In this document: positions 1 to 37,567 of the stretch, piece after piece
How positions within the stretch are numbered: the first letter of the stretch is position 1
Layout: the number at the start of each line of letters is the position of its first letter
IMG/VR virus record: IMGVR_UViG_2617270960_000003
Span: 1 to 45,189 of that record
From: a virus
Taxonomy: Duplodnaviria; Heunggongvirae; Uroviricota; Caudoviricetes
Strand: one strand, 5' to 3'
DNA: 45,189 bases
Made by a program: the position numbers and the translations under genes
Notes under the pieces: model-generated
What the model was told of the DNA's origin: nothing
The model's database searches: none
What the model saw: the letters and a program-made list of their open reading frames with translations, nothing else

Positions 1-37
1 TTATGGTCCGTGGTTGTTCACTCATTCTGAATGCCAT
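1..37 (-). CDS. tfa: tail fiber assembly protein Tfa, 5' end only (continues past left edge of window)
   Basis: Minus-strand ATG at 35-37 overlaps the stf stop (TAATG); translation [12 protein letters not shown] matches the lambda Tfa N-terminus as recalled; stf-tfa order as in lambda. Confidence 0.6.
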   Translation of the reverse strand, partial: MAFRMSEQPRTI

Positions 38-3000
38 TATGCAAGCCTCACAATATAGTTAAATGCGATGTTTTTGACGGTGTTTTCCGCGTTACCAGCA
101 GCGTTAACGGTGATGGTGTGTCCATGTGAGCCAATCGCAACGGAGTGCGTATGAGCACCAATACCGACAGTATGTGCGTGTGCACCTGCGCTTGCAGCAG
201 TACCCGATACAGAGTGCGTATGAGCGCCTGCAGAAGAAGTGTTAACACTGTATTTAGAATAATCAGGTGATCCACTTCCCGGAGCACCACTGGAACCACC
301 TGAAACAAATGTCATCGAATGGGTATGTGCACCGGCTGAAGCAGCCGTACCGCTAACACTATGGGTATGTGCACCAGTGTTATTCGTGGATTTAGTGCCG
401 TAATCAAACGATGATGTGGTTTTCGTCCCCAAATCCGTACTGGATGCGCTGGCGCTGTGGGTGTGCGATTTAATGCCGTCCTGTTCCTGAGACAATACGG
501 CACGACCACTGGCGGGCTTGCCCTTAATCGTCCAGCCACGCATATCAGGAATAACGCCTGACGGATAAGCCACTGCAAGTTTCGGGTATGCAGATTTGTC
601 AAAAGTCTGCCCCTGCATCAGGGCATAGCCAGACGGAACGGTATCTGATGGCCACGGGATTGGTGCGCCGACTGGGTAGCTTTCTGGTGGAAGATTTTTC
701 GAGGTATAAACTTCTGCCCAGTCTTCCTCAAAACCATAACCGTCTCTTGAAGAACGGTAGAACAGACCACCATTTCTGTAATGCGCCTTCATCTGCAAGG
801 TCCGGCAACTTCCGACTCCGGTATAGAAGTTAACCAGAATATAGCTGTCGCCAGAGCGGGTGACATTGTAAGCGCCTGATTCGGCATTCCAGGGAACGCC
901 ACCATCCGCATCGGCATATGTATCCGTTGCCCTTCTGGCAAAAGCAGCCACATGCGCGGCGGTTAAAGTGATATCAGTAGAACCATCAAATGGAACACCG
1001 GATATTTTTCTTGCAGTCTGAAGTTTTGTAGCAGTTGCAGCATTACCAGTGGTGTTCTGATTACCCGTAGTGTTTACACCTGGAAGGTTAATATTTGCAG
1101 AACCGTCGAAAACAACTCCACCGATAGATCTTGCCGTCTGCAATTTCGTGGCTGTACTTGCATTACCATTCAATGAACCAGTTAATCCACCTGTAACAGA
1201 CAACGGACCTGAAACTGTTCCTCCGGTTGTTGGCAGTGCTCCAATATCTGATGGTGTAGGTTTCTGATGTGAGCTATACATCGTATAAACAACACCATAG
1301 GTAACGCTGGAAGGCTTACTCGCTGAATATGTTGGCGAGGTATAAACAGAAACTGACGCATTTGCAGTACAATCCCAATGGATATTTACACTCGTCGCAT
1401 AATTGCCAATCTCAACGTAAATATCATATGTATCGCCGGATGTGTTGATCCAGGCGAAATTCGTTAATCCGACGGCTGTACGCTTCCACAAAGCCCCGGT
1501 AATTCCTTTGGGGTTTCCATTGCCTGCTCGTAGAACCAGTTCTGAAATGCCTGCCTGATGTGGGGAACCGACGTTGTAACCAGCGCCACCAATCAATGCG
1601 ATGTAAACGATGGAACTCGCCTGTGGCATGGTTACCGTTGCTAATTTGAACCAACCAGCACCACCGCTGAATGACATTGTTGTTGAGTTAAGCGTACCAA
1701 TATCTTTCGGCGTCAGTGTTATATCCGCTGAAAGCGCCTTACCATTCACCTTACGGGCAGAAGGTACCCGACCATTCGCATTATCATTAGCTGCTTTCAC
1801 TGCTTTCGGTGTCGCGGCAAGCGTTTCAGATGCGCTGTTGGTTGCACTACTGAGCTGGACAATTCCTTTTTGTGCTGTCGTAGCGTCCTGTGCGGTGTAT
1901 TTCCCGTTAGCCAGGTCATACGCGGCCTTAACGGCTTTTGGCGTTGCCGCCTGTGACTCGGAAGTGCTGTTAGTCGCACTGCTGAGCTGAACTATCCCTT
2001 TCTGTCCTGTCGTTGCATCCTGTGCGGTGTATTTCCCGTTAGCCAGGTCATACGCGGCCTTAACGGCTTTTGGCGTTGCCGCCTGTGACTCGGAAGTGCT
2101 GTTAGTCGCACTGCTGAGCTGAACTATCCCTTTCTGTCCTGTCGTTGCATCCTGTGCGGTGTATTTCCCGTTAGCCAGGTCATACGCGGCCTTAACGGCT
2201 TTTGGCGTTGCCGCCTGTGACTCGGAAGTGCTGTTAGTCGCACTGCTGAGCTGAACTATCCCTTTCTGTCCTGTCGTTGCATCCTGTGCGGTGTATTTCC
2301 CGTTAGCCAGGTCATACGCGGCCTTAACGGCTTTTGGCGTTGCCGCCTGTGACTCGGAAGTGCTGTTGGTCGCACTGCTGAGCTGTACTACCCCCTTTTT
2401 CGTCGTGCTCGCATCCTCAAGCGCCACGGCGGATGCAATATCCTCTGCACGTTTTGCCGCTGTCTCAGCGCGCGTTGCTGCGGATTCTGCCGTACTTTTG
2501 CTCTGTGCTGCCGCTGCCGCACTGCCAGCAGCCTCTGTCGCCTTCGTGGATGCCGTCGTGGCGCTGCCCCTCGCTGCTGACGCCTGTCTGGTCGCCTCAT
2601 CTTTTGAAGCAGACGCAGATGATGCCGATGACGCCGCCGAACTGGCGGACGATGCGGCAGCCGTTTTTGAGGATTCTGCGCTGGTTTCCGACGCTTTCGC
2701 GTTCGTTTCGGATGTCTTCGCTGCGGAAGCTGACCTCGCTGCTGCGCTGGCCTGTACAGCGGCTTCGCCAGCATTCGTTGTGGCTGTTGAAGCAGACGAT
2801 GCAGCACTTTCTGCCGACTTTCCGGCAGCGGTGGCACTGGCTGAGGCCTGCCCGGCACTTGTTGACGCGGCACTGGCTGATGATGCAGCCGCTGTTTTTG
2901 AGCCTGCCGCAGCTGAGGCACTCTGTCCCGCTGCCGTTTCAGAAGACCTGGCGTTCGTCTCGGACGTCTTTGCCGCCTTCGCGGAATTTCCTGCCGCCGT

Positions 3001-3498
3001 TGCCGAGGAAGCGGCACTACTGGCGCTTGATGATGCGTTCGTTTCTGATGATTTCGCTGCCTCTTTTGAGGCCGCCGCATCCCGGGCTGAGGTGCGGGCA
3101 TCGCTGGCTGACTTCTTCGCGGCTGCCGTGTTCTGTGCCACTGCGGACGCGTTACGCGCCACCTCTTCCACCATCAGTTCAAAACGGCGCAGTGCCTCTG
3201 GCCGGACATCATCCTCCGTCATTGCACCGAGGAAATCATTCAGTGTGCCCGGCTTTGAGTCCTCATATACGGTGATAATCCCGGCGTGTGACGGCGGGAA
3301 TCCCTCCACCAACAGACTGACGCTGTACTGACCATACTCGACGTCCATTGTGTAACGCCCGGCTTCATCCGGGTTTTCTGAGGCCACTGTGTTCACCACC
3401 ACCGTGGTGCTGTTGCGCCTGGCCTTTAGCTGAATGGTGCAGTTTTGTATCGGCTTACCTGCGCCATCTTTCAGTACACCTGAAATCCGTACTGCCAT
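37..3498 (-). CDS. stf: side tail fiber protein (Stf-like), 1153 aa
   Basis: ORF track; N-terminus [14 protein letters not shown]...[17 protein letters not shown] is lambda Stf-like; long Ala/Ser-rich region; five 44-aa tandem repeats ([44 protein letters not shown]); C-terminal GAHTHS His-box repeats typical of fiber tips. Confidence 0.85.
1790..2450 (-). repeat. tandem direct repeat, 132-bp period, about 5 copies (3 central copies identical) inside stf
   Basis: Motif ccgttagccaggtcatac recurs ending at 1921, 2053, 2185 and 2317 (exact 132-bp spacing); encodes the 44-aa fiber repeat. Confidence 0.85.
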
Positions 3499-3511
3499 AT
3501 TCCCCCCACAA

Positions 3512-3540
3512 AAAAGCCCGCCTGAACCGGCGGGCTGTCA
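3512..3540 (-). terminator. rho-independent terminator downstream of lom
   Basis: Minus-strand hairpin AGCCCGCC-GGTTC-AGGCGGGCT followed by TTTTTT. Confidence 0.5.
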
Positions 3541-3562
3541 TAACACTGTGTTACCTGGCTAA

Positions 3563-4159
3563 TCAGAATTTATAACCGACACCCACGATGAAACCGTCAG
3601 TGCGCCAGTCACCACTGCCGGAACCTTCATAAGCAACATCAACGGCCACGGATTCGGTCGGGTTAAACTGCACGCCAGCCCCCCACGCCAGAGACGTGTT
3701 GCTGTGGCGACCGTCATCACTTCCGGTCAGCACATCGTGCGTTTTCCCCGTATTGTCAGTCACCCGCAGATAATCCCCGGAGAAAGTCGACACACGGCTG
3801 TAAGCCACACCCACCATCGCATACGCGCTGAACCATTCATTCACGCGCACAGACGGCCCCGCCATCACGCTGAACCAGCGGTTACGCACGGAATCTTCAT
3901 ACCAGCGGGTATCGCTGTAACGCGTAAGCTGCGAATCTTCACCTGCATAACTGAATGACGTAACCAGCCCCAGCGTGTCCGTAAACTCATAACGGTATTT
4001 CACGTTAATCCCGTTCAGATCATCGCTGCCGGAAACGTTCGTACGGGCATGAAGATACCCCGCGCTCAGCGTGGACTGATGCTCAGACGCCCATGCAGGC
4101 GCACCGGATACGGCCAGACAAATGGCTGCGGACAAAATGGCGGCACAAACTTTACGCAT
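3563..4159 (-). CDS. lom: outer membrane protein Lom (Ail/Lom/PagC family), 198 aa
   Basis: ORF track; signal-peptide-like N-terminus, beta-barrel-like sequence ending GYKF; position between J and stf as in lambda; GAGAGG ribosome-binding site. Confidence 0.8.
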
Positions 4160-4386
4160 AATTACCTCTCGCTTTTCTGCAATAAAAAAGGCGCCATTTC
4201 TGACGCCCGTTATGGGTTATAAAATTCAGCTGATACTGATACCAGCGGTGGATTTCTTCATCACCACAACCAGCAAATCGCTGATACTGGCTGTGGGATC
4301 CAGTCATTACCACCCATGAAGACACCGAAAACGCCAGCGTCAGGTCCCCTGACCAGCAGGCATATCAATAACACACGAAAATAAGC

Positions 4387-7300
4387 CTAGCATCCAGCGC
4401 GGACGGTTAAAAATCTCAGACCATTGCGCGTCACTATCAACCGGCAGGACGAATAAATATCGTTATTCTCCCGCTCATGTTTAGCGCCGCAGAATGCCAC
4501 CGCTGGAATAACAATTTGCCTGTCAAAAGGCTGATCGTCATAAATCCTGACGGTGATGGTGCCACTGGCATAAGTGCCCGTCCGCGGGAAAGACTTACCC
4601 ACCGTTTTGACAATATCGCCTTCAATCTGATTGGCTGACAGTTTCCCCTTAATCTGACAGTTCTCATTAATCGTGACGTTGTTGAGCGTCCCGGAGTTCG
4701 CATTCACACTGCCACTGATATCCGCATTTTTAGCAGTCAGCTTTCCGTCCGGTGTCAGGGAAAATGCCGGTGGATTTCCACCGCTGGTAATGGTGGGGGC
4801 CGTCAGGCGTTTCAGGAACACGTCGTTCATGAATATCTGATCGCCCTGACCAACAAACATCGGTTTTGTGTTGCCATTCGCAGGATTAACCATCGCAATC
4901 CTGTCCGCCGCCAGCAGCACCTGACTCTGCATGCCGTCAGGGGTGTTCTCAATACCGACACCAATACCCGCGATATAAAGGCGTCCGTCCTGCATCTGCT
5001 GCAGCTTCACAGCCCACATGCTGTTCAGGTTATTATTTGTATCAACCTGAACCTTCTGTATCTGCTGAATTGCCGCACTCTGGTCTTCCAGTTTCTTATT
5101 GACGGTCTGCGTGATTTCATTGCTGACATCCGTAATGGACGTCCTGATTTCAGCCAGGTCAGGCGCAAGCTGACCGTTATCAATCTGCGTCCACAGCTCC
5201 TGAGCCAGATGGGTTTTCCCTATCTCGCCTTTGAAAAAATCCAGATAGCCGGATGCATCATCGCTCGCCCGACCGACGGCCTCCACAAATGCCGATTTGC
5301 CTACGGTGTTCACACTGCGGGTATAAAAGTAATAATCATGGCCCGGTTTGATATTGATACTGGCGGCTATCCAGTACAGCGCCGTACCAAGATAGCGGGC
5401 TGTGGTTTCAACCTGCCTGATATCCGCAATCCGCTTTTCCGAGAACCAGAACTCAAACTGTACCGTCGGATCATAAACCGCAAGATGCGGCGTGGCGGTT
5501 ATCTGAAAATAGCCCGGCGTCAGCTCAATCCGCGACGGCGCTGCCGGTGCGGCGATCCGGAACAATACCGATGCCGGATCGCCCTGCTGTCCCCATGCAT
5601 TTACCGCCCGGACTGTCAGCGTGTACCGCCCCAGCGCCAGCTGCGTGAAGCGATATGTGGTTTCCGTCGTCCGGGCCGTGCTGACCAACCGCTCACTGCC
5701 GTCGTCCGCTGCCACGGTCAGGCGCAGACTGAAGCGCACGCCCTTCACCACCCGCGGCGTGTCCCATTTAGCCTGCGCCAGATACTGGCCGTCAGCTGCG
5801 CTCACCTCCACCGTCAGGTGCTGTACTGCCGGTGGGATGACGCTGTTCAGGGAGCCTGACTGCGGCTCAAAGCGGGCACCGTTATCCACGATGGCTTCTT
5901 TTTCCGGTACGTGCTGCACCGCCGTGATGGCAAAGGTGCCGTCCGTGTTTTCCCGGATGGAGACACAGCGGAACAGGCGACGGCGCAGTGACGGCAGGGA
6001 GAGTCCCCACACCCCGTATGTCTCCACACCATCAGGCAGGGTACTGACCTGTATCCGGTCCGGCGCGGGGTGTTCGGTGATGTCCACACTCACCGGCTTA
6101 CCGCTGCCGTTAATCAGGTTCACCGTGGCGGCACCGGTCTCCGGCAGGGTAACCTCACGGTCCAGCGTCAGGGTGCGGGTGGCAGCATCAATGGACAGGA
6201 CACGTCCGCCGGTCAGGGTCCCGGCATAGTCATTATCACAGATTTCAATAATGTCACCGGGTGTGTGCCGCAGCCCCTGAGACCCGAGCGTGAAATCCAC
6301 CGTCTGCGTTTCCAGCAGTTCGGTCTTTATCACCCACAGTCCGGCACGGTGGGCCTGACCGCGGCTGGTACAGCCGAACGCGTCCATCTTCAGCAGATTG
6401 CGCCCGTAGCGCAGTATGGCTTCCGGGTCTTCCACCAGTTCCGTGGAGGTCTGCCAGCCGTTCTGCGGGTCGGTGTAATTCACCTCCACCGCCGTGTGCC
6501 GGTCCTTCAGGGCACTGAAGCTGTAGCGGAACCCCACGCCGTTATCATCCACCACCACATCGCTGTTGGTGTACGGCCACACCACATCCGACAGGCGGTC
6601 CTGAACAAACGTCAGCATCTGGCCGTTCCATACCGGCATACAGCGCATCGCCGAGCAGAAATCACTGAGAACATCCCACGCCTTACGCTGTTGTGCCAGG
6701 TACGCATTGAAGGTCATCCGCGGCTCGGTGCCCCCGAAGCCATCCGGCACCATCTGGTCGCAGTACTGCCCGATGGCATACAGCGCCCACTTGTCCACAT
6801 CCGCCGCCCCCAGACGTTTTCCCATGCCGTAGCGCGGGTGAGTCAGCATGTCCCACAGACACCAGGCCGGATTGTTGCTGTATGCCGGTTTCAGACTGCC
6901 GTCCCAGATACCACTGTACGTGCGTTTTTCCGGGTCATAGTTTGACGGCACCTGGATGATGCGACCGCGGATATGGTAGTTCACCGTCATCTGCTGACCA
7001 CCAAACTGCTCCGCATCCACCTGCATCCCCACAATGGCCGTGTTCGGGTAGCACTGTTTCACATCGATGATTTCGGTGTATGACGACCACAGCGTTCTGT
7101 TCTGCAGCTGGTCCGTGGTGCTGTCCGCCGTCTCCCTGACCATCCGGATGTTAAAGGGGCGGGGAGGCAGATTATCCAGAATCACCGAGGCCAGGAACTG
7201 TGAGGTGGTCTTGCCGTTAATGGTGACATCCTTTTCTGTCACCCAGTTACCGTTACGCTGTAACTGAATCAGCAGACGGACAGAGGACGGATTACGGTCA

Positions 7301-7683
7301 CCCTTTGACGTGGTCTCCACCAGTGACTGCACCCCGAAGGTCACCCGCAGGCGGTCAATGTTCGCTGACGTAATGGTGCGTGTTACCGGTTTTGCCCTGG
7401 TCACTTCGACACCCAGTACAGTTTCAGAGCCGGAGGACTCAAAGCCTTCCGGTGGTATCTGCTCCTGCTCCCCGGCACGCCAGACCGCGGTCACACCGTG
7501 TATCACGGGATTACCGTCCGTGTCCGTCAGCGGGGTTTTGTTCACCAGAATACTCTGCAGGCCTTTCACCGGGCCTTCTATCGGTCCCTCACCAATCGCA
7601 TCAATCACGCTCATCATCTGCGTGGATTTGAGATTGTCTTTCGCCTCACGCGGTGTGTGCGCCTTGCCGCCACCTTTGCCCAT
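4387..7683 (-). CDS. J: tail tip host-specificity protein J, 1098 aa; 3' end appears frameshifted or truncated
   Basis: ORF track; near-collinear with lambda J from [22 protein letters not shown] onward; ORF ends about 60 codons short, with J-like C-terminal peptides in the other two frames of 4160-4386. Confidence 0.85.
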
Positions 7684-7786
7684 TACATCACCTCTTACCT
7701 TGATAATTGTTCACTCACAAAAACAACAGGCACCTCACCGGGTGCCTGCGTCATGACGGAATAAAATTTCTGAATATCTTCACATT

Positions 7787-7814
7787 TTCACACACTGACT
7801 GTGGCGCGTATAAT
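7787..7814 (+). promoter_or_regulatory. candidate sigma70 promoter in the I-J gap (TTCACA-16-TATAAT), antisense to the tail operon
   Basis: -35 TTCACA at 7787-7792, 16-bp spacer, consensus -10 TATAAT at 7809-7814. Confidence 0.35.
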
Positions 7815-7885
7815 TTCGCTGCGTTAGTGTTTTTTTGCCCGAGTAACAAAAACAACTCCTTCACATTGATCTTCATTTGTCTGTC

Positions 7886-7918
7886 CCCGCAGCTCCGCGA
7901 TCACTGCGGGATTTTTTT
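7886..7918 (+). terminator. rho-independent terminator on plus strand in the I-J gap
   Basis: Hairpin CCCGCAG...CTGCGGG followed by ATTTTTTT on the plus strand. Confidence 0.45.
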
Positions 7919-7923
7919 ATGTT

Positions 7924-8604
7924 TTATCCCTGTCGCCCGATAACCACGACCTTTCCGCCCCCGCCTTCATCACGGGTGCTGATGTCCTGGGATATACGGC
8001 GGGAGCCAACCAGCATTTCCCCGTAAGGCACCGGCATCGGGTTCCCCTGGGCAATCATGTTATCCAGCGAGGAAAAGTACGTGTTCTGTCTGCCGTTATC
8101 CGTTGCGCGGTAATCCGGTGTTTTTGCCTTCGGGGCCAGCATCTGGGCCACACCGCCCAGAATCATGCTGGCTCCAAGTGAAAACAGCATCGTGGTGGCA
8201 GAAAAACCACCGGCTGCCAGGGCTGAACCCCATAACGCCATTGATGCCCCGGCAGTGAAGAAAGAGCCCACGATGGCTGCCGCCCCCAACACAATCTGCA
8301 GTCCACCCTTTCCGGCCCCGGCCAGTCGCGGCACAATGTGGATGACCGTTCCCTCACCCAGCTGTTCGTGAAGGCGGGCGTACACCACCTCCGGTGCCGT
8401 GTCTTCACCGGCAATACGTATCTGGTACCAGCCTTCGTTCATCTGACGGCGAAAGCCCGGCATCTGCATCGACAGGGCGCGGATGGCTTCCGCTGCCGTG
8501 TTCACATACAGGCTGAGGCGGCGGCCAAATCGTTGCAAATCCCCGTGAAGGCAGATGTGTGCCAGTGGCGGTGACGCCAGACAGAATGCGTTCGTCGTTG
8601 CCAT
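7924..8604 (-). CDS. I: tail assembly protein I, 226 aa
   Basis: ORF track; LASP...ICLHGDLQRFGRR...AIRAL...GWYQIRIAG and C-terminal NTYFSSLDNM match lambda gpI as recalled. Confidence 0.85.
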   Translation of the reverse strand: MATTNAFCLASPPLAHICLHGDLQRFGRRLSLYVNTAAEAIRALSMQMPGFRRQMNEGWYQIRIAGEDTAPEVVYARLHEQLGEGTVIHIVPRLAGAGKGGLQIVLGAAAIVGSFFTAGASMALWGSALAAGGFSATTMLFSLGASMILGGVAQMLAPKAKTPDYRATDNGRQNTYFSSLDNMIAQGNPMPVPYGEMLVGSRRISQDISTRDEGGGGKVVVIGRQG

Positions 8605-9245
8605 TTTTCGGAATACCTCTCCCGTTTACTCAGTTGTTCAGGAATATGGTGAAGCAGTTCACCGTTGCCGCAGTAAATGGCGGCATGATTAGCCACCGAT
8701 GCGCCGAAGCAGCACAGCAGGATATCGCCCGGCTGTGCAGAGGACAGGGGCACCCGGTAAAAGCCGGTGACCGCCATATTGTCCAGGTACAGGTTCTGGC
8801 CGTTGCGCCACCAGTCATCCTCGCGATGAAAATCCGGCATATCAATTCCCGCCAGATGGTATGCATCCCGGAACAGCGTGTAACAGTCCGTCACCCCGTG
8901 CTCAAAGCGCCGTCCTGTCAGATGTGGCACACAGCGGAATTTATGAATTTCCCCCCGGCAGACCAGCCACCAGGGTAGTGCGCTTTTTATCTGCAGCCGC
9001 CGGTCAGCCTCGCTCAGCCAGGGCAGCTCACCGGGATGACTGTGGACCAGTGCCACAATCTCCCCCTGCATCTCTGCCCGCAGCCAGTCTTCCGGTGCGA
9101 TACGAAAATACGCCTCCGGCTCTGCGGAAATATTCACACAAGGGATATACCGCTCCCCCTCCGGCGTGCTTATCACGAAGCCGCACGACTCCGCAGGCGC
9201 ACACCGCCGGGCATGCGCCAGAATCGCTGATTCAGTCTGTGTCAT
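8502..9245 (-). CDS. K: tail assembly protein K (MPN/JAB plus NlpC/P60-like), 247 aa
   Basis: Homology starts at internal ATG (9243-9245): MTQTESAILAHARRCAPAESCGF...HSHPG...; the upstream 87 codons of the 334-aa track ORF have no K homology; 3' end overlaps I. Confidence 0.8.
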   Translation of the reverse strand: MTQTESAILAHARRCAPAESCGFVISTPEGERYIPCVNISAEPEAYFRIAPEDWLRAEMQGEIVALVHSHPGELPWLSEADRRLQIKSALPWWLVCRGEIHKFRCVPHLTGRRFEHGVTDCYTLFRDAYHLAGIDMPDFHREDDWWRNGQNLYLDNMAVTGFYRVPLSSAQPGDILLCCFGASVANHAAIYCGNGELLHHIPEQLSKRERYSEKWQRRTHSVWRHRHWHTSAFTGICNDLAAASACM

Positions 9246-9255
9246 AAACCGGGAT

Positions 9256-9954
9256 TTACTGCGAAAGTTTATTAATGGAAAGGAAACCGCCAAAATTGCC
9301 GACATTCCTGCGCAGTTCACACCCGCGCATGCACTTGCTGCATCTGTCCTTACGGATATCCGTGGTGGGTTTATCGAACTCATCCGCCACAGCCCCGCCC
9401 GTGTAACCACACTCATCAGAGCGGTAGGTCCACATACAGGTGTTCGCCAGCATGATACGACCGGGAAACTGAGCTCCGTCCGTCTCGGTCGGTGTGGCCA
9501 GCACAAACGAGGCCGTCATGGCTGTCAGCTGCGACATCTGCTCCACCACTCAGCGGTCGCTCAGCTCCTGCTCCGGGTCCGCTTCCGGATTGCCCGCCAC
9601 AAAATTCACCGCATCCAGAAAACGGGCATACACCCGGCGGCGGACCACCGTGGCCCCCACCAGACTCTGCAGGTCTTCCGCCATCCCGGTGACAAGGCCG
9701 AACAGATTGGACACCGTCAGCGACGGTCTGGCACTGCTGCCTTTCCCGTTCATTTCAAAGCCGCTGCCATCAATCGGGTACGCCTCATACTTACGCCCCT
9801 GCCAGGTGACCGGCTCCCCTTTTTCATTCAGCTCATTACAGAAAAAATACCGCTCACCACCCTGTACCGTCAGGTCGATTTCCCAGAGTACCACCCGCGG
9901 TGACTGCTCTGACTTAACCGACTCGTTCAGACTTTCTTCGCGAATATCCTGCAT
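9256..9954 (-). pseudogene. L: minor tail protein L interrupted by in-frame opal stop (TGA at 9550-9552 in place of Trp)
   Basis: Track ORFs 9550..9954 and 9256..9549 are in the same frame and adjacent; together they read ...ADPEQELSDR*VVEQMSQLTAMTASFVL versus lambda L ...ADPEQEVISRWRIEQCSELSAVSASFVL. Confidence 0.8.
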
Positions 9955-23802: not shown

Positions 23803-24870
23803 ATGAGTCAACATCAATATTATCCACAGCTGAAATGGAAGCCTGCTGAATATGAATCTCTGATGCTTTTAGATCAAACTACGCTCTCTGGTTTTACTCC
23901 GATCATTACCATTCCAGACATAGACTGGGATTATGAAAACGAATGCTACAAGAAGAGTTTGAGTTCTTACTTATCTGACTTCGGTATTAACCTTGCGGCA
24001 TCCTGGAAAGCCAATCGTCCTGTTTTGCTGGATGTTAAATATTTAGATAAACATGGTTCGAGCCGCCATCATCCTCTAGATATGTGTATCCAAGATGCTA
24101 GAGTAAATGGTAAGGAAATTATCCCTGTTGTTTCTCCCGCATATTCAACAAACTATATACATGCTGTTCAACGCAACTTAATCAATGGGCTCGCTATATC
24201 TATCACCCCCCAGACATGGCACCAATTCACAAGTCTGGTTAACCACTTAAATATTCATCCTAGTTTAATTGATGTAATCATTGATTTTGGAGATATTCAA
24301 AACGCAACTGATAGTTTAAAACAACAAGCATTAAGCATGGTCAACACATTATCAGGCCAAGCTCCGTGGAGAAACTTGATTTTATCTTCAACCGCATACC
24401 CGGCATCACAGGCAGGGATACCGCAACATCAAGTTCATCATATTCCGCGCCATGAATACGATCTTTGGATGTACGTAGTACAGAATTTTAGCAATGGAAG
24501 AACGCCAAGTTTTAGTGATTATCCCACCGCTAGCTCTACCATTACGAGCGTAGACCCACGCTTCATGTCTCAGTATGTCTCAGTGAGATATTCGAACGAT
24601 ACCTCATGGATCTTTGTAAAAGGTACCGCAGTTAAAGGAAATGGATGGGGCCAAACTAAAAACTTATGTACTACCCTTGTTAGTTCGCCAGAGTATCAAG
24701 TCTTTGGCTCCAAATTTAGTTGGGGGGATGATTACATTTACCAAAGATCATTAGGCGCTAACAAATCTGGCGGCTCTAAAGAATGGCGTAAAGTTGCACA
24801 TACGCACCATATTACGTTAGTCGTGAGACAGCTTTATTGGTTGGCGCAGACTCAGCCTGCCAAGCCTTAA
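23803..24870 (+). CDS. hypothetical protein, 355 aa; AT-rich cargo gene at the bor-equivalent locus
   Basis: ORF track; AAGGAG 7 nt upstream of ATG; low GC unlike the flanking phage genes; no confident homolog recalled. Confidence 0.6.
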   Translation: MSQHQYYPQLKWKPAEYESLMLLDQTTLSGFTPIITIPDIDWDYENECYKKSLSSYLSDFGINLAASWKANRPVLLDVKYLDKHGSSRHHPLDMCIQDARVNGKEIIPVVSPAYSTNYIHAVQRNLINGLAISITPQTWHQFTSLVNHLNIHPSLIDVIIDFGDIQNATDSLKQQALSMVNTLSGQAPWRNLILSSTAYPASQAGIPQHQVHHIPRHEYDLWMYVVQNFSNGRTPSFSDYPTASSTITSVDPRFMSQYVSVRYSNDTSWIFVKGTAVKGNGWGQTKNLCTTLVSSPEYQVFGSKFSWGDDYIYQRSLGANKSGGSKEWRKVAHTHHITLVVRQLYWLAQTQPAKP

Positions 24871-25432
24871 CTTTCCAGCCTACGCGTTTCTTTAAGGCTG
24901 TTCTGACTTCAGGCCTGAGATTCGCTATTGGAATATTTTCCGCAATAATATTCCATAACTCAAATCGGGGCTTGCTTTTGATTCCTTTGGAATAGCCCCA
25001 TCGTTCAAGTACGTCGATACATTCATCTTTCCAAAGCAATTGAGCGAGCATCAATGTGTCATGGTTTCGATTAAGCTTTTCTCCACGCATGTGCTTTATA
25101 AGAATGGCGCCTTTTGGCCCAACAGAAACCGTTTTAACGCCCCACCAACCTGGGATTAACTTTAATGCTCCCTCAAGGTGTTTCTCAGCTACGACAAGAG
25201 TAACCTTGTCCATTACAGAAGAATAATGCTTGATTTGAAGAGGCAAACGCTCCAAAGAGTCATATTCACTTTTGAGCTCGTACCCGTGTATAACACCATT
25301 TATTACAGCAATGTCTGCTCTACTGGCGCCAAGGGATATGGAAAATTCATCGACCACAAGGCAGTCTGGATCTAAATGCGATTCTTTCAAAAGCTTATGA
25401 TGCACCGCGAACCTAACATCTTGATCTTTCAT
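24812..25432 (-). CDS. hypothetical protein, 206 aa; possible PD-(D/E)xK-type nuclease fold; cargo partner
   Basis: ORF track; AAGGAGA 4 nt upstream of ATG; D...E.K pattern in VVDEFSISLGASRADIAVINGVIHGYELKSEYD; 3' end overlaps the convergent 355-aa gene by 59 bp. Confidence 0.55.
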   Translation of the reverse strand: MKDQDVRFAVHHKLLKESHLDPDCLVVDEFSISLGASRADIAVINGVIHGYELKSEYDSLERLPLQIKHYSSVMDKVTLVVAEKHLEGALKLIPGWWGVKTVSVGPKGAILIKHMRGEKLNRNHDTLMLAQLLWKDECIDVLERWGYSKGIKSKPRFELWNIIAENIPIANLRPEVRTALKKRVGWKVKAWQAESAPTNKAVSRLT

Positions 25433-27577: not shown

Positions 27578-29431
27578 TTATGATGATGCTGGTGCATTTA
27601 TCTCCAGCACCAGACTTTCTATCTCAACGCCATACGCTGCATTTTTTGTAACATCCGTCAGCGTCAGCGCATTCAGCCCCAGTGTCAGACTGTCTTTTAT
27701 GACCTGGAATGCCGGGCCAGCCACTCCATTCAGTTTCGGAGTAACCGTGGCACTGCCGGCGGTGAACACCAGCTCCAGCGTCTGCCAGTCGTTACCGTAA
27801 TCGCCGAACTCCCCCAGCTTCGTGTTTCCGGCTTTCCTGTGATGCATCAGATTCACTCTGCCGTCAATGGTCTGAGTGAAGTAAGACATCAGGAACGGAT
27901 TACCAGTACCCGTCATCGCCACATCATCAGGAACGGGAGCGTCCGTATACAGATAAATCCCCAGCCCGAACTGATTGTTGGTCAGTGCGCCTGAGAGGCG
28001 GAACTTACAGGTCAGTCTGCCGCCCTGTGTCAGCAGGGTAATTGCGTCATCCACCGGATGCATCAGGTACCAGGTTTTATTGCTCTGCTTGGTGATCTTA
28101 AATACACCCTCTGACAACTGAATTCCGCCATTCTTAATGCTCCAGCCCTGCGCAGCAGCATCTCCGGCTGTCGGCAACAGGGAGATTGTGCGTACGGATG
28201 CATCTTCAGACGGCCCCGATGGCGTGTCGCCGCCGGGCGAGGGTTTGATTTCCGGTGCCTTACCACTAATGAAGGCTAAGGTGCGACCGGCTACGTTCAG
28301 AATAGCAGTTGCCATACGATCGGGAATAATGCCACGACGCGCCCATGAGCTGAAATGCGTCGGGCGATTTGATGATACCCAGTTTTTGTTCGTTCGGGAT
28401 GCCGAACCGTAATAACCAGACCCGACAATATCAGGATCTTCTGACGGGTTGTTTGTCGGTGTATTAACTCCGCTACCATCGGTCATAAAGGGAACAAAAT
28501 AAATCTGCTGGGATTCTTTACCTTTATATGCACCATATACCACTTCATATTGCGTACCGTGTTCTTGTTTCCACGCGTATGTCGTGTCGCCACAAATCCA
28601 GGGGACTGATGCCGGACTTCCACCGTGACACTGCGCCGCCAGCCCGGCAAGGTCAGCACGGAACTGCTGTACCATTGCAAGAAATGCTGCTGGCTGCTGG
28701 GCGTAACTGGCATTCGTCATATCGAATTCCCCCTGCATCCAGCATATCGCCAGCAAAACGTTTTTCGGGTTTTTCTGCAATGCTGCCTTCGTGCGGAAAA
28801 GCAGATCCTGATATAACGGCTTACCCACTCCCCAGCGAGCCGAATCCTGACTGGCCCCCGTGGACTCGCTGAATGTCCCCTCCGTGCCCTTGGTGAATGC
28901 CGAACCACCACGACAGCATGGTACCAGCAGGATCCCCGCATTATTAGGGATATACGGAAGCAGTTTTTTGGCAATATGTAAGCCCTGTCCGACACAACCG
29001 TACTGCCCTTTGCTCAGGTCAGCCCGGGGATGGTTAATCGTACTCATATCCTGAACATCATGCAGACAATGGTCAGCAGGAATGATGTCGTTAAATACGC
29101 ATACTTCGCCACCGGGAGTCACTGTGTTACGACGGGCCAGTTGCTTAATGCGCGGATGGGGCGCATCGTATGAATCCGGAAGCGGAAGCCCTTCACCGTA
29201 AGCCATGGCATTGGACTGCCCGGCCAGTACGATGACGTAGTACCACTCCGGCTCAGTTGCACCACTGACGACCACATCACCTTCTGCTGCAATCGCCTGC
29301 ATCAGGGTATAAGGGGTTATGGCCACCGGACTACCAAACGGCTGCCAGCCCTCTTTCAGTTTATGTGTCAGCTTTTCCGCAAGATCTGACGGCGACGCCG
29401 CCCTGACAACATCATAGTGTTTAAATGCCAT
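27578..29431 (-). CDS. nanS: prophage 9-O-acetyl sialic acid esterase NanS-p (DUF1737 N-terminus plus SGNH/SASA esterase domain), about 617 aa
   Basis: N-terminus MAFKHYDVVRAASPSDLAEKLT.KLKEGWQPFGSPVA matches NanS-p of Stx/lambdoid prophages as recalled; lies upstream of the lysis cassette. Confidence 0.8.
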   Translation of the reverse strand: MAFKHYDVVRAASPSDLAEKLTHKLKEGWQPFGSPVAITPYTLMQAIAAEGDVVVSGATEPEWYYVIVLAGQSNAMAYGEGLPLPDSYDAPHPRIKQLARRNTVTPGGEVCVFNDIIPADHCLHDVQDMSTINHPRADLSKGQYGCVGQGLHIAKKLLPYIPNNAGILLVPCCRGGSAFTKGTEGTFSESTGASQDSARWGVGKPLYQDLLFRTKAALQKNPKNVLLAICWMQGEFDMTNASYAQQPAAFLAMVQQFRADLAGLAAQCHGGSPASVPWICGDTTYAWKQEHGTQYEVVYGAYKGKESQQIYFVPFMTDGSGVNTPTNNPSEDPDIVGSGYYGSASRTNKNWVSSNRPTHFSSWARRGIIPDRMATAILNVAGRTLAFISGKAPEIKPSPGGDTPSGPSEDASVRTISLLPTAGDAAAQGWSIKNGGIQLSEGVFKITKQSNKTWYLMHPVDDAITLLTQGGRLTCKFRLSGALTNNQFGLGIYLYTDAPVPDDVAMTGTGNPFLMSYFTQTIDGRVNLMHHRKAGNTKLGEFGDYGNDWQTLELVFTAGSATVTPKLNGVAGPAFQVIKDSLTLGLNALTLTDVTKNAAYGVEIESLVLEINAPASS

Positions 29432-29691
29432 GGTTCTTTCCACCATCTGAAAAATGATTCTTTAAAATACCTGACATGTAATACAGAAAAAAAACAAAAC
29501 CATACCTTAAATAAAAACCTCATCATCAAGCAGATATGCATGGATAAACTACAAGACGAGATATAAACCACCCTGCATTTAAATAAACAATAAACAACAT
29601 CAGAAAAATAATTCTGCTCTATGGTTTACAATCAAAAATATCATTTATACTTTTCAGAACATCACCAGCAAGGCATAAACAAGGAAACTAA

Positions 29692-31175: not shown

Positions 31176-32234
31176 TCATCCGCTCTGGCTGACTAAATCC
31201 TGTACTTCCCGAACCGTCTGCTCAAAACGTTCAGTCTCCAGCTCAACGCCAATTGCACGACGCCCGAGCGCCAGTGCCGCTTTCACTGTCGAACCCGACC
31301 CCATGAAAAAATCTGCAATCAGGTCACCCGGACGACTGCTAGCGCTGATTATCTGCTGCAGCATTTCTGCCGGTTTTTCGCACGGATGTTTCCCGGGATA
31401 GAACTGCACCGGTTTATGCGTCCACACATCGGTATACGGCACCTGCACCGTCACGCCAAAATACCGCCGCAGATGTTTATATTCACTCAGCAGCTCCGCA
31501 TACTGCCGGTTCAGTGAGGTATACGTATCCACCAGCTGGTGGTGGAGCTTTTCCAGTTCACCACGCCGATGCTTCTCTTCTGCCACCCGGGCAAACAGCG
31601 CCTGTAATTTCAGATAATCGCTTTCATTCGGTAGCTGCCACTGACTGGCACTGAACCAGTGCGACACCATGTTTTTCTTTCCTGTGGCATCTGCAATCTG
31701 TTTTGCCGTTATCCCCAGGGCCGCGCGCGCATCACGAAAGTAAGAAATCAGCGGGGCCATCACATGCTGTTTCAGTGCACTGCCCTTCGCCGCATACCCG
31801 GCATCTTTCGGACGATACGGCCCCTGATAATGTTCCGCGAACAGAATGCGCTCTGTGGCGGGGAAATACGCCCGCAGGCTTTCCTTGTTGCACCCGTTCC
31901 AGCGTCCGGACGGCTTCGCCCAGATAATATGGTTCAGCACACTGAAGCGTTCACGCATCATGATTTCGATATCAGATGCCCGGCGATGACCACAGAACAG
32001 GTAAAGACTTCCGGCAGGTTTCAGCCCCCGCCAGAACTGCGCCAGACACTGGTCCAGCCACTTCAGGTAATCATCGTCGCCCTTCCACTGGTTATCCCAG
32101 CCCTCAGGCTTCACTTTAAAGTACGGCGGGTCCGTAACTATCAGGTCAACAGAATTTTCGGGTAACGACCGGATAAATTCCAGGCAGTCGGCGTTGATTA
32201 ACTCACAACTGGATATTTTTACAGTATTAAGCAT
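31176..32234 (-). CDS. DNA methyltransferase (orphan N6-adenine/N4-cytosine class; DPPY motif then C-terminal FxGxG), 352 aa
   Basis: ORF track; LIVTDPPYF catalytic motif and FFMGSGST SAM-binding motif. Confidence 0.8.
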   Translation of the reverse strand: MLNTVKISSCELINADCLEFIRSLPENSVDLIVTDPPYFKVKPEGWDNQWKGDDDYLKWLDQCLAQFWRGLKPAGSLYLFCGHRRASDIEIMMRERFSVLNHIIWAKPSGRWNGCNKESLRAYFPATERILFAEHYQGPYRPKDAGYAAKGSALKQHVMAPLISYFRDARAALGITAKQIADATGKKNMVSHWFSASQWQLPNESDYLKLQALFARVAEEKHRRGELEKLHHQLVDTYTSLNRQYAELLSEYKHLRRYFGVTVQVPYTDVWTHKPVQFYPGKHPCEKPAEMLQQIISASSRPGDLIADFFMGSGSTVKAALALGRRAIGVELETERFEQTVREVQDLVSQSG

Positions 32235-36072: not shown

Positions 36073-36867
36073 GTGGATCGGTGCGGTAATTATTTACTTA
36101 AAGATGGTCGCAGTTTAGGACAAGGGAGTTTTGGCGAAGTATTTAAGGTTGATGTCTATAACTTAACCCAGACCCACATGACCACATATGCTCGCAAATA
36201 CTTTTCACCTTGCCCGGACTTTGACAAGACCGCTATAAAAGAGTTGACTGATTTAAGACAGCGTTTTTTAGTTGAGATCAAAACACAATGCACTCTCAAT
36301 AGAATAAACTATGATTCAATAGCGCCAATAGTTTTATTTAATACAAATGGTGATAAACCTTATTTTGTTATGGAATTGGCAGAGTGTAACTTATATGAAG
36401 CCATCCGCAATGGTATGAATTACGCGGAGAGGAAGTCTGCTGTTACTCAGATTTTAAAAGGAATTATCACCATACATGAAAACAACTATATACATCGTGA
36501 TTTAAAACCAGGAAACATACTTTATTATGCCGATGGAAAGTATAAAATATCTGATTTTGGTCTAGTAAAAGACAGAGATACCTTACGGGCCGAAATCAAA
36601 ACAAAATTTAAGCCTAATCACATGGGCACAGATGGATATCGAGCACCCGAAATACATGATAGCGGTCTTTTTTCTTTTCAAAGCGACATATTTGCAGCAG
36701 GTAAAATTATCACTGATATATATCCCACAGAAAGAAGTGAAAAATTAAAAAGATTGATTGCAAAATGTTGCGCACATTGGCCTGAAGAACGATATCAAAG
36801 CACACGGGAGTTACTGGAAGATTTTTTAAAAGTGACGGGGGAGGTAAATCATGAAGAACATAATTGA
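36073..36867 (+). CDS. Hanks-type (eukaryotic-like) Ser/Thr protein kinase, 264 aa, GTG start
   Basis: ORF track; Gly-rich loop LGQGSFGEV, catalytic loop HRDLKPGNIL, DFG (ISDFGLV), APE (YRAPEI); AAGGGGG 4 nt upstream of GTG; AT-rich. Confidence 0.85.
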   Translation: MDRCGNYLLKDGRSLGQGSFGEVFKVDVYNLTQTHMTTYARKYFSPCPDFDKTAIKELTDLRQRFLVEIKTQCTLNRINYDSIAPIVLFNTNGDKPYFVMELAECNLYEAIRNGMNYAERKSAVTQILKGIITIHENNYIHRDLKPGNILYYADGKYKISDFGLVKDRDTLRAEIKTKFKPNHMGTDGYRAPEIHDSGLFSFQSDIFAAGKIITDIYPTERSEKLKRLIAKCCAHWPEERYQSTRELLEDFLKVTGEVNHEEHN

Positions 36868-37567
36868 AATGGCATGTTTTAGCCTAAAACAACCCCAAAA
36901 AAAAGAAAATGAAGACTTTTATTTACCGCCATCTTTTGATAGCGATTTTAACATTGTCTTTGCAGTAGCTGATGGGGTTGGTTCCTCTGAACATTCAATG
37001 CTTGCATCTCATGCAGCCATTCGTGGCATTAGACACACGCTAGGCACTTCCTTTTTCTCAATTGAAAGTGCATTTCATTCAGCTAAAAAAGAAATTGACA
37101 ATTTAGATATTAGCACTGCCACAACCTTAACAATTGTTCAGATCAAAAAAAATGAAGTGTTAATTGGTCATTCCGGTGATTGCCGAGTATACTTCAATAA
37201 AAACAATAAACTAAATCAGTTAACCACTGATCAAACGAGATATCAAGAACTCCTTGATTCTGGTGAACATAAATTACGTAATTTAAGAAATCATAAAGAA
37301 CGGCTATCTTCAGTCCTAACGAATGCTTTATCAAATACAACGGATTTGAATTTTGAGTTAATGTCTTTTCCGATTAGCCAGCTAATTTATAATGGCTATC
37401 TTCAACTCTATGCAATGACTGATGGTGCCTATAAGCATTGGGATGTCAGACCAAGGTTTTCTGAGAAGACAATGCTCTCACCAACAGCTTTTGCGAGTAG
37501 TTTAAGAAAAAGGATTGAGAAAAATATAATGGATGATTACACCTTTATAGGCGTAAAAGTAACCTAA
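36851..37567 (+). CDS. PP2C-family Ser/Thr phosphatase, 238 aa
   Basis: ORF track; FAVADGVGSSE, GHSGDCRVY and MTDGAY motifs; GGGGGAGG upstream; start overlaps kinase 3' end by 17 nt. Confidence 0.8.
   Translation: MKNIIEMACFSLKQPQKKENEDFYLPPSFDSDFNIVFAVADGVGSSEHSMLASHAAIRGIRHTLGTSFFSIESAFHSAKKEIDNLDISTATTLTIVQIKKNEVLIGHSGDCRVYFNKNNKLNQLTTDQTRYQELLDSGEHKLRNLRNHKERLSSVLTNALSNTTDLNFELMSFPISQLIYNGYLQLYAMTDGAYKHWDVRPRFSEKTMLSPTAFASSLRKRIEKNIMDDYTFIGVKVT

Follow-up and report, generated by a model that had tools for sequence, protein, structure and literature searches.

The frameshifted 3' end of J in a draft E. coli prophage contig is probably a consensus artefact

The 3' end of the gene J, which encodes the tail tip or host specificity protein, is frameshifted in the window analysed here, and sequence comparisons suggest that this lesion is very probably a consensus artefact of a draft assembly, generated at a collapsed repeat. 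The window is the whole contig JNRP01000032.1 (45,189 bp) of the assembly GCA_000704745.1 of E. coli 3-020-07_S1_C2, and all features described below lie on its minus strand. Four features that characterize such an artefact were found: the sequence is private to one assembly, it alternates between two alleles, its indels fall at conflicts between these alleles and a clonal sibling is intact. The loss of the J frame most likely does not affect the true genome, in which the prophage most likely carries an intact J, namely the 1158-aa allele of a sister colony. The biological weight of the lesion is accordingly small.

J reading frame and its deletions

J of the window is an ordinary homologue of lambda gpJ and stands in the gene order I-J-lom-stf, as in lambdoid prophages. 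As deposited, its ORF (4387..7683) encodes a protein of 1098 aa (GenBank KDZ22507.1) with the Pfam domains of gpJ, the precomputed set for this product being FNIII-A_GpJ, Phage-tail_3, Ig_J, Phage_Tail_Tip and Ig_GpJ_C. It resembles lambda gpJ in being a full-length homologue with all gpJ Pfam domains and, after repair, a C-terminus that aligns at 75–81% identity; it differs in that the deposited form loses its frame over the last ~66 codons, while the form of the sibling is intact with 1158 aa. The shift, 66 codons ahead of the canonical J stop, leaves the C-terminal receptor-binding domain out of frame, and the end '...KK(S/A)TAGI(S/T)IS' is not reached in frame. The premature stop (TAG, 4389-4387) is preceded by 10 out-of-frame codons and lies 227 nt from lom (3563..4159).

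The remaining J coding sequence (4226..4386) is readable solely via frame hops. An alternative frame carries LTLAFSVSSWVV, and one more shift leads to DPTASISDLLVVVMKKSTAGISIS, which terminates at the canonical stop (TGA, 4228-4226). The preliminary description of this DNA had placed the J stop at 4387, 227 nt short of lom, and had read the missing C-terminus in the other two frames; the same ORF coordinates and the same peptide pieces, including LTLAFSVSSWVV, were found here. A spurious ORF of 57 aa (4152..4325; KDZ22506.1), which overlaps the start of lom, is a product of the frame shifts. J had also been described as ~60 codons short of lambda J. The size of the shortfall is right (57–61 codons), but the reference has to be the true homologues of 1155–1159 aa and not lambda J, which is 1132 aa long.

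Alignment to the intact J of E. coli ATCC 8739 (1159 aa) gave the map of the deletions. Six frameshifting deletions, amounting to 7 nt, form a cluster at 4299..4420, with junctions at 4420/4419, 4403/4402, 4376/4375 (2 nt), 4350/4349, 4309/4308 and 4300/4299, all within 125 nt. The preliminary description had counted at least two indels; indels are indeed present, but this alignment puts the number of frameshifts at six. The 7-nt shortfall is also seen against strain 90-9281 and against 120 IMG/VR J loci. There is in addition an in-frame length difference of 12 nt to ATCC 8739 at 4566-4581, and the J-lom spacer has a 1-nt gap at 4210..4211. The clustering of the indels is pronounced, with seven events in ~210 nt and zero over the other ~15 kb that the window has in common with its sibling. 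A homopolymer sequencing error, considered earlier as a source of the indels, is ruled out: the reads come from an Illumina platform, and just one of the seven lost bases belongs to a homopolymer run (AAA to AA).

When the gaps were filled, the resulting 133-aa C-terminus aligned to J C-terminal domains with 75–81% identity and E-values down to 2e-58, which bears out the significance of the alternate-frame similarity noticed at the outset. The repaired frame has no stop through to the canonical end, and its changes are all allele-derived; it therefore gives no indication of long-term decay.

A functional short or recoded J, either as a natural variant or through read-through by programmed frameshifting, is hardly credible. 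Only the existence of the ORF can be cited for it. Read-through would require six shifts in mixed frame directions, and a repeated slippery-site pattern was not evident by eye at the six junctions. As for a natural variant, no short or intermediate J allele was found in 5,426 complete E. coli genomes, in phage records or by exact-oligomer scans, so that the short C-terminus is not one that related functional phages in these records share.

Mosaic of two alleles in the J 3' end and lom

The first hint of the origin of this sequence came from the protein alignment of the repaired C-terminus, which appeared as a mix of two known alleles. Allele A is the ATCC 8739-like form, whose protein ends in ...KKNGAEIYNRTALDNTLIYSGVIDMPAGHGHMTLEFSVSAWLVNDWYPTA...KKATAG. 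Allele B is the form of Stx1a phages, phage Lys8385Vzw and strain 90-9281 and ends in ...KKSTAG; B2 is a relative of B. In the main part of the mosaic (patch 2, 4241..4447), A and B alternate at the level of single bases; over 4230-4460, a stretch that includes this patch, the informative sites show 31 switches. Both alleles are in frame and of equal length over patch 2, with a divergence of ~30% (about 32% of the columns).

The substitutions and the deletions are both related to these alleles. Among the 28 substitutions that depart from A, 23 are equal to B or B2, against an expectation of ~10% under random mutation, and random decay is ruled out on this ground. A diversity-generating or hypermutation mechanism is also unlikely: no base specificity is seen among the changes, which are templated by allele B. 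Each of the seven deleted columns is one in which A and B disagree (chance ~0.32^7 = 3e-4), and every deletion coincides with a gap when A is aligned with B at unit cost. At one of the sites, for example, the sequence is CCGTACC in A and TCAGTCC in B; the alignment places CC-GTACC above TCAGT-CC, and the window has CCGTCC. Because the alleles are equal in length and both in frame there, such indels are not expected from recombination between A and B.

A smaller patch further into J (patch 1, 4555..4605) is in frame and mixes A and B bases; its length is that of B, which is 12 nt less than that of A. The segment 4552-4445 (~100 nt), inside the mosaic zone, is pure A. In the J-lom spacer, the gap at 4210..4211 is a B-type state amid A-type context. 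None of the four reference alleles accounts for the base at 4958 or for those at five sites in 3750-3767. Like the pure-A segment, these bases count against a consensus artefact. A map of 21-mer deserts against ~135 natural loci was also drawn, which for the window marks 4375-4447, 4289-4349, 4578-4600 and 3923-3962. Against the same A-biased panel, deserts of 16–40 nt are likewise seen in the natural allele of the sister colony (allele S), and the map was therefore given no weight.

The signature of the J patch recurs in lom. The variable loop at 3915-3945 is an A/B mix with a deletion of 3 nt, and lom remains open (198 aa) because the loss there is 3 nt. The protein is unique to this contig, and the best match of the gene is 96.4% among about 15,000 copies.

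The mosaic bears directly on the view that the tail module has decayed, as the preliminary description had proposed. Under genuine pseudogenisation, J of colony C2 would have recombined at its 3' end with other resident prophages and, later or in the same event, lost 7 nt, and the receptor-binding domain would be gone. The deposited sequence reads in this way, lambdoid J 3' ends are mosaic by nature and allele S has some sites in common with B; moreover, a nonsense codon in the minor tail protein L (W135*) indicates that the prophage was already under relaxed selection, so that further real decay is not implausible in principle. This course of events would nevertheless need ~30 conversion tracts of 1–5 nt between alleles that diverge by 30%, together with six deletions that all fell on allele-conflict columns within 125 nt, while no other indel arose over about 15 kb. 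The lack of any indication of long-term decay in the repaired frame, the intact J of a sister colony of the same clone from the same stool, with a protein found on two contigs, and the lack of anything similar in any other sequence searched also speak against it. We consider genuine pseudogenisation unlikely. Biological decay of J is not what a ~200-nt patch that alternates between two intact alleles suggests, with deletions all at allele conflicts, a sequence unique to one draft contig and an intact J in the sibling. The proposed decay of the tail module therefore rests on one real lesion, in L, and one probable artefact, in J.

The mosaic itself could have been real and formed in vivo, for instance by template switching or heteroduplex repair among three resident lambdoid prophages of colony C2, across J alleles ~30% divergent, within a few generations of the siblings, with small deletions at misaligned sites and destruction of the receptor-binding domain. 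We regard this as very unlikely. If the mosaic were true, it would be a record of an unusual micro-patchwork recombination among resident prophages.

Source assembly, sister colony and uniqueness of the sequence

The contig comes from a study in which 100-bp Illumina HiSeq 2000 reads were assembled with MaSuRCA 2.3.2 (Richter et al. 2018, mSphere, PMC6222053). Table S1 of that paper traces the colonies C1 (JNRO), C2 (JNRP, 121 contigs) and C3 (JNRQ) to a single baseline stool from one infant, assigns each of them to ST1139, phylogroup A and O8:H9, and gives SRS568201 as the SRA sample of C2.

Between the portal gene and J codon ~975, a distance of about 15.2 kb, the contig JNRQ01000006.1 of the sister colony C3 (210 kb) and the window have a single difference, at 4958. 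Near-identity to the sibling prophage ends at 4741..4744, past which the J 3' end, lom and the side tail fibre gene are different. The C3 prophage has an intact J of 1158 aa, a Lom of 199 aa and a side tail fibre of 923 aa. The exact 1158-aa J is found under two GenBank identifiers (KDZ20454.1 and KDZ33409.1) on 2 contigs, which suggests its presence in two of the three colony assemblies, and the Lom allele of C3 is present on 452 contigs. In the window, the last 2 kb of the side tail fibre gene downstream of lom are 98.95% identical to the counterpart in strain 90-9281, and the contig ends 36 nt beyond this gene.

Searches for the sequence elsewhere gave consistent results. Among 153 billion indexed gene positions, neither the truncated J nor the 57-aa ORF nor the Lom protein was on any contig besides this one, and the first two are singleton protein clusters. 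A patch-specific 29-mer had no exact match in genome, viral and metagenome collections and a 26-mer from the patch had none in viral contigs; at least 120 viral contigs contain the homologous 29-mer of allele A (ATCC 8739), used as a control. Across the 5,426 complete E. coli genomes, the closest DNA match to the 246-nt patch had 87.4% identity. In an index of 5.8 billion proteins, from which the matches listed were all short proteins, the best identity among them was 81%.

The position at which the window leaves its sibling raises the question of a chimeric join without any consensus error, that is, a misjoin at conserved J which attached a true old pseudogene of a second prophage. The divergence at ~4744 falls in a stretch common to the alleles, as for a repeat-mediated join, and the similarity of the side tail fibre gene to that of 90-9281 is in line with such a join. 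However, the base-level alternation of A and B and the deletions at conflict sites would still have to be explained, and an old pseudogene predicts random substitutions and not 23 of 28 matching allele B or B2. A sibling genome with the same pseudogene should also encode the 57-aa ORF and the truncated J, neither of which is on other contigs in the index, an argument that is weaker for draft assemblies, in which genes are often cut at contig ends. A chimeric join as the sole event is thus highly improbable.

Proposed origin of the consensus, and a nonsense codon in L

The consensus artefact, which we favor, would have arisen as follows. The O8:H9 ST1139 clone would hold several lambdoid prophages whose J genes have long identical stretches in common. 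In the C2 assembly, for which MaSuRCA combines super-reads with Celera Assembler, the contig would exit the prophage within conserved J, near 4744, and enter a pile that superimposes two other prophage copies, one A-like and one B-like, over their J 3' ends and lom genes. A column-wise consensus of this mixed pile may have taken A in some columns and B in others and discarded the columns with an aligner gap in either allele. The outcome would be a chimera that lacks 7 nt in J, which breaks the frame, and 3 nt in lom, which preserves it. MaSuRCA hands super-reads of low redundancy to the Celera Assembler consensus, and two conflicting super-reads at one position could yield a coin-flip consensus. 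The merge would require a relaxed, forced consensus at the contig level, the ~30% divergence of A and B exceeding normal overlap thresholds. We infer both the presence of A-like and B-like copies in the C2 genome and the exact step at which the assembler merged them. The evidence for the copies is indirect and consists of the pure-A segment at 4552-4445 and the B context of the side tail fibre gene downstream.

Collapsed-repeat or mixed-haplotype consensus errors of overlap-layout-consensus assemblers offer a close parallel. As in these errors, the window has a chimera that alternates between two paralogous copies, with small indels at gap sites; the affected prophage gene exists in multiple copies and lies close to the end of a contig, and the sequence is confined to one draft assembly. 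The case differs in the source alleles, which are unusually divergent here (~30%), and in that the assembler step is deduced from its product. In lambdoid prophages, J 3' ends and lom genes occur in multiple copies and are conserved in part, and a chimeric, frameshifted consensus can emerge from them in draft assembly. Pseudogene calls, receptor-binding-domain typing and unique protein clusters in draft J/lom regions can therefore be artefacts, and KDZ22507.1, KDZ22506.1 and the Lom of the window are examples of possible artefact proteins.

The lesion in L is of another kind. The gene for minor tail protein L (9256..9954) has a nonsense codon, W135*, through a change of TGG to TGA at 9552-9550. 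The L stop mentioned in the preliminary description is real: the N-terminal fragment of the broken gene is also on other contigs, among them the sister contig JNRQ01000006.1 and two read-level Logan contigs, and because W135* is identical in all of these, it is an inherited mutation. L thus fits what is expected of a genuine decaying pseudogene, whereas the lesions in J do not. The prophage resembles cryptic or defective lambdoid prophages in W135*, a clean single substitution that independent assemblies have in common and that is seen in all assemblies of the clone; the lesions in J differ in being clustered, allele-templated and private to one contig. The L nonsense mutation is real but unremarkable.

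Mixed and unmatched bases in lom and J

Besides J, the tail tip gene, the neighbouring lom gene (3563-4159, minus strand; 198 aa) also carries bases of more than one allele. In its variable loop (3915-3945), bases of the ATCC 8739-like allele (A) and of B2, a relative of the Stx1a phage/Lys8385Vzw/90-9281-like allele (B), alternate one by one, and 3 nt are deleted. This chimeric A/B2 loop and the deletion indicate that the zone of chimeric consensus reaches through lom. Among about 15,000 lom copies, the closest DNA match was 96.4%, and the 198-aa Lom protein was seen on the window contig alone. At two places the window departs from all four reference alleles (A, B, B2 and that of the sister colony): lom 3750-3767, where five substitutions fall within 18 nt, and J position 4958 (Ala to Val). 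Such bases could have entered the pile from a third paralogue, or they could be true private SNPs.

The J C-terminal domain was also found in many deposited "proteins" in which it is joined to unrelated phage N-termini. Examples among the database proteins matched by the gap-filled 133-aa J C-terminus are P0001, P0021, P0023, P0096, P0098, P0101 and P0103. The N-terminus of P0001 was seen in the alignment to be foreign to J, and those of the remaining fused proteins are HTH, L, Nu1, Lom, DUF1737 or I, according to Pfam domains or source names. The abundance of such fusions suggests that, in draft assemblies, chimeric contigs or deletions frequently arise at the J 3' end.

Minor tail protein L and the side tail fibre

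The minor tail protein L gene (9256-9954, minus strand) contains a nonsense codon, W135* (TGG to TGA, 9552-9550). The identical change is carried by the sister colony contig and by two Logan read-level contigs (SRR1186460 and SRR1186795), and the stop is therefore real. Partial readthrough of this UGA as Trp could in principle occur, although this is speculation.

The side tail fibre (37-3498, minus strand; 1153 aa) comprises phage_tail_N, five Phage_fiber_2 and Collar domains, and 36 nt separate its gene from the contig end. Read from the first ATG, its sequence had no exact match in the protein collection. Two adjacent segments of about 218 nt each (2265-2048 and 2133-1916) both match one 90-9281 fibre segment at 85%. 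Assembly may be a further influence on repeat copy number.

Putative cargo and other genes

A 355-aa "Beta_protein" (PF14350; 23803-24870, plus strand), a putative moron-like cargo, is encoded between the terminase module and the lysis module, and its gene runs opposite to the neighbouring ones. A gene for a 206-aa protein (24812-25432, minus strand) converges on it; in other genomes, the corresponding proteins carry the annotation P4 cII-like. Both genes are found together at this location in many E. coli prophages (7358 index blocks). A 622-aa protein with DUF1737, SASA (sialate O-acetylesterase) and DUF6645 domains is encoded downstream of the Q antiterminator (27578-29446, minus strand). 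A 352-aa N6/N4 DNA methylase is encoded at 31176-32234 (minus strand). In the early region, a eukaryotic-like Ser/Thr protein kinase gene (36073-36867, plus strand) overlaps a PP2C-family phosphatase gene (36851-37567, plus strand); this pair may be phage-exclusion or signalling cargo.
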